Part shown: positions 50,936 through 52,512 of the stretch, piece after piece
Layout of the letters: every line of letters begins with the position of its first letter
Position numbering within the stretch: the first letter of the stretch is position 1
Assembly: GCA_965202805.1 (NCBI GenBank)
Contig: OZ241869.1
Span: 3,424,001-3,488,000, forward strand
From: Longimicrobiales bacterium
GTDB taxonomy: Bacteria > Gemmatimonadota > Gemmatimonadetes > Longimicrobiales > Gaopeijiaceae
Length of the DNA stretch: 64,000 nucleotides
Direction of reading: 5' to 3'
The notes under the pieces: generated by a model
Seen by the model: only the letters and a program-made list of their open reading frames with translations
Told to the model about the DNA's origin: nothing
Database searches by the model: none
Program-made: the position numbers and the translations under genes

Positions 50936-51676
50936 ATGGCTGAGATTCGACACCTCGCTGACGCGCCCATAAGGGAAGCTGTTCTGGACATTCGAGTTCC
51001 CCGATCGACCGCGGCTCATCCGCAGACACTGCGGAGGGCGTTGGTCTCGGTTGAATCGTTCCCCGAGATCCAGGACTTGAAACAAGGGTCGATCGCTTTC
51101 CGTCTCTCCCCCGACGGAGAGCCGGAGAGCCATGCCGAAGGCACTGAGGTTGTCGGTGTTCGTGGTGCGACCGCGGACGGGTTGTGGGTCGTCCAGTATA
51201 GAAGCAGTGGAGTGACCTTCAGCCGGCTTCGGCCGTACCCCGGTTGGGACAGCTTTCTGGAGAGGGCTCGACCATTTGTGGAACGGTTCATGCAGGTGGC
51301 GCAAGCGTCTCTCGTAGAGAGGTTGGCGCTTCGTTACATCAACGTCTTCCAACTGCCCAATCCTTGCGACCCGGAAGATTACTTTGTTGCTCCACCTTCC
51401 CTGCCCGAATCCCTGCCTCTGCACGTAAACAGCTTGGTCTCCAGGCTAACGGTTCGCGATCCGGGTACGGGGCTCCAGGCTCATGTTGCACATGTGCTCC
51501 AGGATGATCTACAACCGGACAAGATGGGGATGACATTGGACATCGATGTGTTCAGCGTGGATCGGCTGGGTGCGAACATACCAACACTCTGGCAGCATCT
51601 GGATGAACTTCGAAGGCTCAAGAATCGCATCTTCTTCGAGTCCATCACTGACCGGAACGCGGAGAGGTTTGGCTGA
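50936..51676 (+). CDS. TIGR04255-like protein
   Basis: L.DAPIREAVLDIRV, PYPGWDSF, RLALRYINVF, LDIDVF, LRRLKNRIFFESIT; recognised by eye. Confidence 0.78.
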   Translation: MAEIRHLADAPIREAVLDIRVPRSTAAHPQTLRRALVSVESFPEIQDLKQGSIAFRLSPDGEPESHAEGTEVVGVRGATADGLWVVQYRSSGVTFSRLRPYPGWDSFLERARPFVERFMQVAQASLVERLALRYINVFQLPNPCDPEDYFVAPPSLPESLPLHVNSLVSRLTVRDPGTGLQAHVAHVLQDDLQPDKMGMTLDIDVFSVDRLGANIPTLWQHLDELRRLKNRIFFESITDRNAERFG

Positions 51677-52135
51677 ATGTTAGTGCTGCGAAGTCAAGAA
51701 GCCGTTCACGGAGGCAGGGTTAGCTCCAACGTCTCCACGGGCAGGACCAAGGGAGACGATGGCGTGGAGGAAGCTCTGCGTAGCGTGCGGGGCGAGCACT
51801 ACTTGTCGACCTACTGGGATCTCATCGATTTGCTGGAAGAGGTCCGAACTGGGGAGACTCTGGATATCCGGCCGTTGATTCGCGCCCGGCGCTTGGTGGA
51901 CGCCCTGCCGAATGGAATTCCAGCTCCGGAAGTCGGGCTGGATCCCGATGGCGAGGTGGCGCTGGACTGGATAAGGTCAAACCGCACGTTGGTCTCGGTA
52001 AGCGCGGGTGTGACCGATGACCTCAGCTTCGCAGCGCGGTTCGAAGACGGTACATCCTACGGCGTCATCCGACATACTGACGAGTTCCCGCTACCCGTAG
52101 TTGACCTGCTGCGACGCCTCTTTCGCTCCGGATGA
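51677..52135 (+). CDS. Hypothetical protein (putative antitoxin/immunity partner)
   Basis: Starts directly after the upstream stop; LP..IPAPEVGLDPDGEVALDW motif. Confidence 0.7.
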   Translation: MLVLRSQEAVHGGRVSSNVSTGRTKGDDGVEEALRSVRGEHYLSTYWDLIDLLEEVRTGETLDIRPLIRARRLVDALPNGIPAPEVGLDPDGEVALDWIRSNRTLVSVSAGVTDDLSFAARFEDGTSYGVIRHTDEFPLPVVDLLRRLFRSG

Positions 52136-52512
52136 CGGCTGTCGGCGTTGTCGCTCGCTTTCTCTTTCAGAAAGGGCACTACTCGTCGCAGAAGGGCATC
52201 GTGAAACCTGGAGCGTTCCTGCCGAAGAACGGACAGACGTCTGTCTTCGAGGTTTCCGGCCTGGAGGAGGAAGACGTGAGGTTGATGGGGGATGCAGCTG
52301 GAAGGACCCGCGGACGCAGCCCCCGGGGCCGGGGCGAGTTGGAGACGTCGGATGTGACCGCCGCAGGACTGCGATTCGAGCGAGATGATGTTCCGCCCAG
52401 GCACGGCAACCTCGTTGGGTGGCCATCCCACGGAAAAGAAGTAAAGGCCCGCTGCAAGGCAGTCGCCATCGAATTGGCGGTACGCGCAGTTCTTGTTCTT
52501 CACACACCTTGA
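52132..52512 (+). CDS. Hypothetical protein, possible ADP-ribosyltransferase/RES-like fold
   Basis: ATGA overlap; spaced R (VARF), AFLP, S (TSVF) and H (RHGNL) residues. Confidence 0.6.
   Translation: MTAVGVVARFLFQKGHYSSQKGIVKPGAFLPKNGQTSVFEVSGLEEEDVRLMGDAAGRTRGRSPRGRGELETSDVTAAGLRFERDDVPPRHGNLVGWPSHGKEVKARCKAVAIELAVRAVLVLHTP

Follow-up and report, generated by a model that had tools for sequence, protein, structure and literature searches.

A mobile, widely conserved three-gene operon with a TIGR04255 protein, a putative antitoxin and a predicted ADP-ribosyltransferase toxin

In the genome of a Longimicrobiales bacterium, three small and tightly packed genes of low GC content are located between genes of metabolism, which raises the question of what these genes do together. 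They were analyzed as part of a stretch of 64,000 nucleotides (the window). A preliminary description, made from the letters of the DNA, had proposed a module of a sensor or chaperone, an antitoxin and a toxin. The analysis revealed that the cassette is a real, mobile and widely conserved three-gene operon. The best explanation, to which we assign a probability of about 0.55, is a mobile toxin-antitoxin operon under the control of a third protein, in which gene 3 would encode an NAD+-using ADP-ribosyltransferase (ART) toxin, gene 2 would encode the antitoxin, and the TIGR04255 protein encoded by gene 1 would grip the N-terminal tail of the antitoxin and keep the antitoxin working. The direct observations are the order and coupling of the genes, their insertion, their conservation across phyla, the predicted folds, an R-S-H triad, a one-sided decay and a difference in tail length.

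A mobile operon at a variable-cargo site

The features of the locus are summarized in Table 1. The three open reading frames were found on the forward strand exactly as the preliminary description had placed them, i.e., the stop codon of gene 1 abuts the ATG of gene 2, and the stop of gene 2 and the start of gene 3 overlap by 4 nt. The cassette is single-copy in its genome, and neither a sigma-70 promoter nor a terminator was found at it. The whole stretch was present in two sequencing runs, both of one study, which may be the source sample and are therefore not independent support for the stretch; no RNA dataset was among the sequencing runs listed.

Table 1. Features of the cassette and their positions in the window
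Feature	Position	Strand	Basis
Accessory insertion bearing the cassette, ~1,945 bp	50629..52573	.	Flank comparison in 18 congeners
Gene 1, TIGR04255 family, 246 aa	50936..51676	+	NCBIfam E 1.6e-33
Gene 2, 152 aa, putative antitoxin	51677..52135	+	Alignment; PDC-M32A matches among relatives
N-terminal tail of gene 2, about residues 1-38	51677..51790	+	Candidate gene-1-binding "addiction" element, boundary approximate
Gene 3, 126 aa, minimal ART fold, predicted toxin	52132..52512	+	
R9 codon of gene 3, first core strand	52156..52158	+	149/150 sequences
S37 codon of gene 3, following T36 in the second core strand	52240..52242	+	150/150 sequences
H91 codon of gene 3	52402..52404	+	150/150 sequences

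The low GC content that had been noticed in one line of the sequence (33 of 60 nucleotides at positions 50941-51000) was verified, and it extends to the whole insert, which has 60.6% GC in comparison to 68.4% for the genome. Equally low values were found in 44 of 2,067 genome windows of the same size. The GC content at third codon positions (GC3) was 0.64-0.69 in the cassette and 0.92-0.93 in two flanking genes.

The insertion was mapped by a DNA search of 18 congeners. On one side it is flanked by a 2Fe-2S/molybdopterin oxidoreductase operon and on the other side by an aldehyde dehydrogenase gene (named by reading the sequence and not by a family scan), and thus the proposed insertion between metabolic genes holds for this locus. 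The cassette is missing at the same site in 12 of the congeners, with the flanks joined by 5-22 nt in 11 cases and by 74 nt in one case. The remaining six have other cargo (three congeners), a triad with a frameshifted gene 3, a decayed triad and a gene-3 remnant (one each). The insertion site is a small variable-cargo site. Other cargo at this site (loci L164, L165, L166 and L169, i.e., congeners G006, G009, G012 and G010) includes a lipoprotein-like gene family, and the cargo of G009 is a gene pair, the first of which resembles a Panacea/DUF4065-type antitoxin by eye. The dN/dS values against the congeners were 0.16-0.20 for genes 1 and 2, which are under purifying selection, and dS was saturated for gene 3. 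Further downstream in the window (53918-55702, forward strand), a thyX-like gene carries an in-frame intein-like insertion, with a Cys at its start and His-Asn at its end before a Ser (by eye).

In 301 genomes of the phylum, matches to gene 3 were present in 17, to gene 2 in 24, and to TIGR04255 in 37 genomes, and all three genes were found in order at 18 of the 21 distinct gene-3 loci. A motif scan of GTDB yielded 67 gene-3 loci, of which four were cut by contig ends. At the 63 evaluable loci a TIGR04255 gene was located upstream of gene 3 in 51 cases, genes 2 and 3 occurred without it in 11 cases, and one locus was a fragment. The triads span 14 phylum labels, and the phyla are mixed on a quick, poorly resolved tree, as expected for horizontal transfer. 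The preliminary description had treated the triad as a unit, and its conservation was clearly borne out. The triad was also present on two viral contigs, and a distant triad was found in a Ralstonia phage.

The three proteins and their relatives

Gene 1 had been called TIGR04255-like, and a profile search verified this assignment with 116.6 bits (curated cut-off 30), covering model positions 2-252 of 252. The AF2 model (pLDDT 90) predicts a duplicated TBP-like alpha/beta saddle; an internal repeat was not demonstrable by hhalign (probability 3.7). The neighbours in fold searches include TBP, RepDE and KH-domain proteins, and a search of a viral structure library gave one unnamed match (TM 0.49) as well as TBP-like proteins. 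A relationship to SecB was not found: none of 60 gene-1 relatives matched Pfam SecB at E<=1, hhalign of gene 1 against four SecB-like proteins gave probabilities of at most 1.6 (with a shallow alignment), SecB was absent among the fold-search matches listed for gene 1, and PF02556 had no match in the host genome.

For gene 3, the conservation of residues was derived from an alignment of 150 sequences. The structure model has the split beta-sheet of the ART core fold, and R9 and S37 lie within the strands 6-11 and 35-40, i.e., at the positions where ARTs have a conserved R or H (strand 1) and a conserved S or Y (strand 2). No glutamate column exceeded 88 of 150 sequences, and the invariant third residue is H91. 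The earlier suggestion of an ART or RES-type fold was therefore right for the ART fold and for the R-S-H residues, which are near-invariant, but not for the RES type, because a conserved glutamate is missing. An assignment to the RES or R-S-E ART class was rejected, as gene 3 has neither a conserved catalytic glutamate nor a Pfam match. Based on the model, gene 3 is predicted to be an NAD+-using ADP-ribosyltransferase toxin. The closest folds are Tse2, a T6SS effector (PDB 5ako), and KptA/Tpt1 (PDB 9ld3), with about 10% identity. The pocket of R, T-S and H is common to Tse2 and gene 3; for Tse2, the accessible part of a preprint gives R14, T79, S80 and H122 as predicted pocket (bioRxiv 10.64898/2026.06.15.732508). 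In contrast to Tse2, no secretion context was seen around gene 3, and in contrast to Tpt1, gene 3 has no RNA-binding lobe and aligns to the NAD lobe only (residues 91-180 of 9ld3). The gene-3 family comprises 2,073 clusters at 50% identity. In the ESM Atlas gene 3 matched unnamed clusters only, and the nearest named lead was DUF6098. Sequence searches of the PDB with alignments of all three proteins gave nothing meaningful.

In the alignment of gene 2, the N-terminal tail is variable and rich in S/T/P, and the core is conserved, with modal frequencies of 0.28 (tail) versus 0.46 (core) and S/T/P fractions of 0.24 versus 0.18. Aromatic residues were not enriched in the tail. The region 51677-51870 of the window represents a gene-2 subclade that lacks the family motif ECxxxxWDGYGA and has a shorter N-terminus.

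The preliminary description had regarded the cassette as a candidate for a new system. PADLOC indeed had no match for the three proteins of the window, and full-length matches to PDC-M32A and PDC-M32B were not obtained. Yet 37 of 66 gene-2 family members matched PDC-M32A weakly (E<=0.01), and three of 150 gene-3 relatives matched the best PDC-M32B model, the best E values being 9e-6 and 6e-5; therefore, that core is not wholly unseen. For the one member with a position given, the gene-2 core matched positions 270-343 of the 375 of the PDC-M32A model. At the locus L041 the remaining 250 residues of PDC-M32A are encoded by a gene of their own (E 6e-53), and the gene-2 core downstream of it is bare and followed by an intact gene 3; we read this locus as a probable split PDC-M32 with an inserted toxin-like gene. 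The gene order there (L041:5227-7345) is a gene for the N-terminal domain of PDC-M32A, a PIN-like gene, the bare gene-2 core and the intact gene 3. Based on these matches and on L041, PDC-M32 appears to combine this antitoxin-toxin core with another front end, which is fused to it, and genes 2 and 3 are, as judged by sequence, distant relatives of this candidate system. The likeness concerns the C-terminal part of PDC-M32A and the gene-2 core, as well as PDC-M32B and a few gene-3 relatives. The difference is that PDC-M32A has about 375 aa and includes another, fused N-terminal domain of 250 aa, whereas the cassette has a separate TIGR04255 protein and a short tail. According to the available text of Payne et al. 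2024 (bioRxiv 10.1101/2024.01.29.577857), PDC systems were predicted from their location within other defence loci, and the sole paper found that names PDC-M32 merely lists it in a prophage, in the part that was accessible (PMC12429752).

Further arrangements of the core were observed. At L048 (1231-2960) a 240-aa first protein of no recognised family precedes the gene-2/gene-3 core or gene 3, and at two other loci this position is occupied by genes that we take to be YbjN-like (L037:399-1818) and DUF3467-like (L034). At L085 (5828-6899) a HicB-like fragment is fused ahead of the gene-2 core, downstream of a HicA-like gene and with gene 3 intact (by eye). At L148, L149, L153 and L155 the gene-2 core is an orphan, with both gene 1 and gene 3 absent from its vicinity; it looks as if the core of the putative antitoxin were the last part of the cassette to be lost.

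One-sided decay and the tail of gene 2

The decay of the cassette was analyzed with 68 cassettes that contain gene 1 or its remains. Duplicates were merged, the distant subfamily (L154, L156, L157, L162, L163) was left out, and L107, L151 and L152 were assigned by hand. Genes 1 and 3 were intact in 56 cassettes, gene 3 alone was broken in five and both were broken in seven, and there was no case in which gene 1 alone was broken (Fisher p = 8e-7, or 5e-6 after merging of two sisters). Since gene 1 has twice the length of gene 3, random lesions would strike gene 1 first more often; nevertheless, all five single lesions were in gene 3 (length-weighted p 8e-4). Such a one-sided decay is expected if the failure of gene 1 makes gene 3 harmful, and the pattern fits roles as toxin, antitoxin and helper.

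The length of the tail was measured as the number of gene-2 residues before a conserved glycine. It was 91-114, with a median of 106, in 60 triads (L064 was left out due to its uncertain start). For seven loci without gene 1 but with a near-complete gene 3 the upper bounds were 53, 72, 74, 76, 90, 95 and 100 (p = 4e-5, or 1.5e-4 without L041), and these loci are spread over four places on the quick, poorly resolved tree. The comparison excluded L068, which is located at a contig end, and L060, in which gene 2 is broken. Three more loci without gene 1 have long gene-2 N-termini; in two of them a different gene is located directly upstream, and one is a fusion. When these three were counted, p was 0.044, and a weak point of both the decay and the tail counts is inflation by assembly errors and relatedness. 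The shorter gene 2 could also have a purely physical reason, i.e., clipping by the deletion of gene 1, and the missing enrichment of aromatic residues in the tail is a further weak point.

Together, the one-sided decay and the tail difference fit an "addiction" of the antitoxin to TIGR04255 like that of toxin-antitoxin-chaperone (TAC) systems, in reversed order, and we infer that gene 1 is a chaperone or sensor for gene 2. Like CmdTAC and HigBAC, the cassette has three genes, its putative antitoxin bears an additional tail, and the third component is reused with different toxin-antitoxin pairs; CmdT is an ART-fold toxin, as predicted for gene 3. In contrast to TAC systems, the putative helper is encoded first and the predicted toxin last, the tail is N-terminal and not a C-terminal ChAD, the helper (246 aa) has a predicted duplicated TBP-like fold and no match to SecB, and gene 3 has R-S-H in place of the H-Y-[E,D,Q] triad of CmdT. 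This triad is described in the accessible part of Vassallo 2024 (PMC11618068). According to the available text of Bordes 2016 (PMC5105189), removal of the ChAD tail makes a TAC antitoxin independent of the chaperone, and the tail works also at the N-terminus. The parts seen of Mets 2024 (bioRxiv 10.1101/2024.02.24.581848) and Vassallo 2024 report that phage proteins trigger TAC-type systems via the chaperone. Membership in the TAC class by definition was rejected, since gene 1 does not match SecB by sequence, the genes follow the opposite order and the extension is at the N-terminus. By analogy, the cassette most likely works like a TAC system, though it is outside the defining features.

It is considerably less probable that gene 1 acts in a three-part complex, either as a second antitoxin with a structural role or as a regulator that binds nucleic acid, needed for neutralisation or repression and neither a folding chaperone nor a phage sensor. 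The one-sided decay would fit any essential neutralising role, the operon has no HTH protein, and the TBP, RepDE and KH-domain neighbours of the fold are in accord with this explanation. However, the TM-scores of gene 1 to TBP are only about 0.3, some TIGR04255 operons already have an HTH-like gene 2 (by eye), which would make a second regulator redundant, and a near-complete toxin is retained in loci without gene 1.

In the preferred explanation, a toxin-antitoxin pair that depends on TIGR04255, the core of gene 2 would neutralise gene 3, and the tail would destabilise gene 2 unless it is held by gene 1, with the concave sheet of the TBP-like saddle as the probable binding site. A phage protein competing for gene 1 would then lead to release of the toxin and abortion of the infection, as in CmdTAC and HigBAC. 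The target of the toxin would most likely be nucleic acid (about half of the probability), followed by degradation of NAD+ (three tenths) and modification of protein (one fifth).

Defence context and other partners of TIGR04255

For the neighbourhood, 181 neighbouring genes were called crudely at 51 loci and 150 of them were scanned, and 117 genes from 20 arbitrary regions served as a baseline, which is rough because it is derived from one phylum. PADLOC matches (E<=1e-8) were found for 25 neighbours and for seven genes of this baseline (p 0.008), and after removal of housekeeping look-alikes by judgement the numbers were 20 and five (p 0.012). The enrichment near defence genes that the preliminary description had suggested as a check was thus present as a modest excess. 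At L087, L088 and L099 the triad occupies the gap that separates a large methyltransferase gene from a helicase-like gene, at L092 it is located in the same gap together with two further genes, and at L069 it follows a type I restriction operon. No credible defence neighbour was found at 36 of the 51 loci. Downstream of the embedded triad and the helicase at L099 (9441-12775), WGR-like and macro-domain-like genes were seen by eye, which could be ADP-ribose-related partners.

A connection to defence was also found in the accessible part of the DefensePredictor study (PMC13092281), one table of which contains at least eight TIGR04255 proteins among the predicted defence genes and which lists DS-42 (PRO1) as a replicated three-gene defence system. 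The first gene of DS-42 (238 aa) is followed by a second gene (190 aa) overlapping by 4 nt and then by an effector. The layout is similar to that of the cassette; the effector of DS-42 is an MBL hydrolase, and its first gene is annotated as hypothetical. The available text of the DefensePredictor preprint contains no discussion of DS-42. First genes of 221-238 aa that resemble the DS-42 first gene by eye occur at L103 (5636-7321) and L035, ahead of the gene-2/gene-3 core or of gene 3; they did not align with TIGR04255. In a full-text literature search, which had most subscription journals outside its coverage, no description of the triad was found, and no paper on TIGR04255, on DS-42 with DefensePredictor, or on a tripartite system with a TBP-like protein. 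The accessible parts of PMC13586616 and PMC13069673 contain nothing on the triad.

The cross-phylum linkage, the predicted toxin and antidote, and a first protein on which the antidote appears to depend suggest that the cassette is probably an anti-virus switch, built like TAC systems with a different chaperone. An unlikely explanation is that the cassette is a selfish module for addiction or stress, wired in the same way but having no role in phage defence. Housekeeping genes flank most loci, a gene-3 relative was found on only two viral contigs in the motif scan, and the cassette is frequently lost or decayed in congeners, as such a module would be. Its likelihood is lowered by the roughly threefold excess of defence-like neighbours, the embedding of the triad in restriction-type operons, the kinship to PDC-M32, and the TIGR04255 proteins and the DS-42 layout in the available part of PMC13092281.

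In 28 further TIGR04255 loci, hand-picked as being outside the close family, the second gene started within -22 to +10 nt of the TIGR04255 stop in 26 cases, and at least five sets of second and third genes were found. From inspection by eye and remembered motifs we take these partner sets to be HTH with PemK-like, RES-like, helical with a further ART-like, short with PemK-like, and a remote version of the cassette. TIGR04255 heads operons with effectors other than gene 3. The L006-type third genes did not align with gene 3 (probability 0.3), and the L011-type third genes aligned weakly (probability 54.5). On a cyanobacterial plasmid (L110:6001-7831), TIGR04255 is followed by a second gene of helical type and by a third gene that is unrelated, and restriction-modification genes are located nearby. 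The first gene of the cassette is a reusable module. That gene 1 is an enzyme, which makes a signal or reverses the product of the toxin, with gene 2 as adaptor, is quite improbable, because its matches are loose, with non-enzymes scoring equally well, several of its conserved polar residues differ in other TIGR04255 subfamilies (by eye), and the effectors are so unlike that one enzyme could hardly reverse all of them.

We tentatively propose, at slightly less than even odds, that TIGR04255 forms, independently of SecB, a second class of chaperones for toxin-antitoxin systems and of phage sensors, which would grip N-terminal addiction tails and serve as a plug-in front end for many unrelated effectors, i.e., an R-S-H ART in this cassette and PemK-like, RES-like, other ART-like proteins and MBL nucleases elsewhere. 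The gene-3 family is a large uncharacterised ART family with an R-S-H pocket common to Tse2. The proposed mechanism would offer an explanation for the candidate PDC-M32 and perhaps for DS-42. It would assign a function to TIGR04255, and chaperone addiction would have arisen on a second scaffold and with opposite polarity. The swappable pair of sensor and effector is easy to test and to engineer. If true, the widespread TIGR04255 family would take the central place in an entire class of immune systems.
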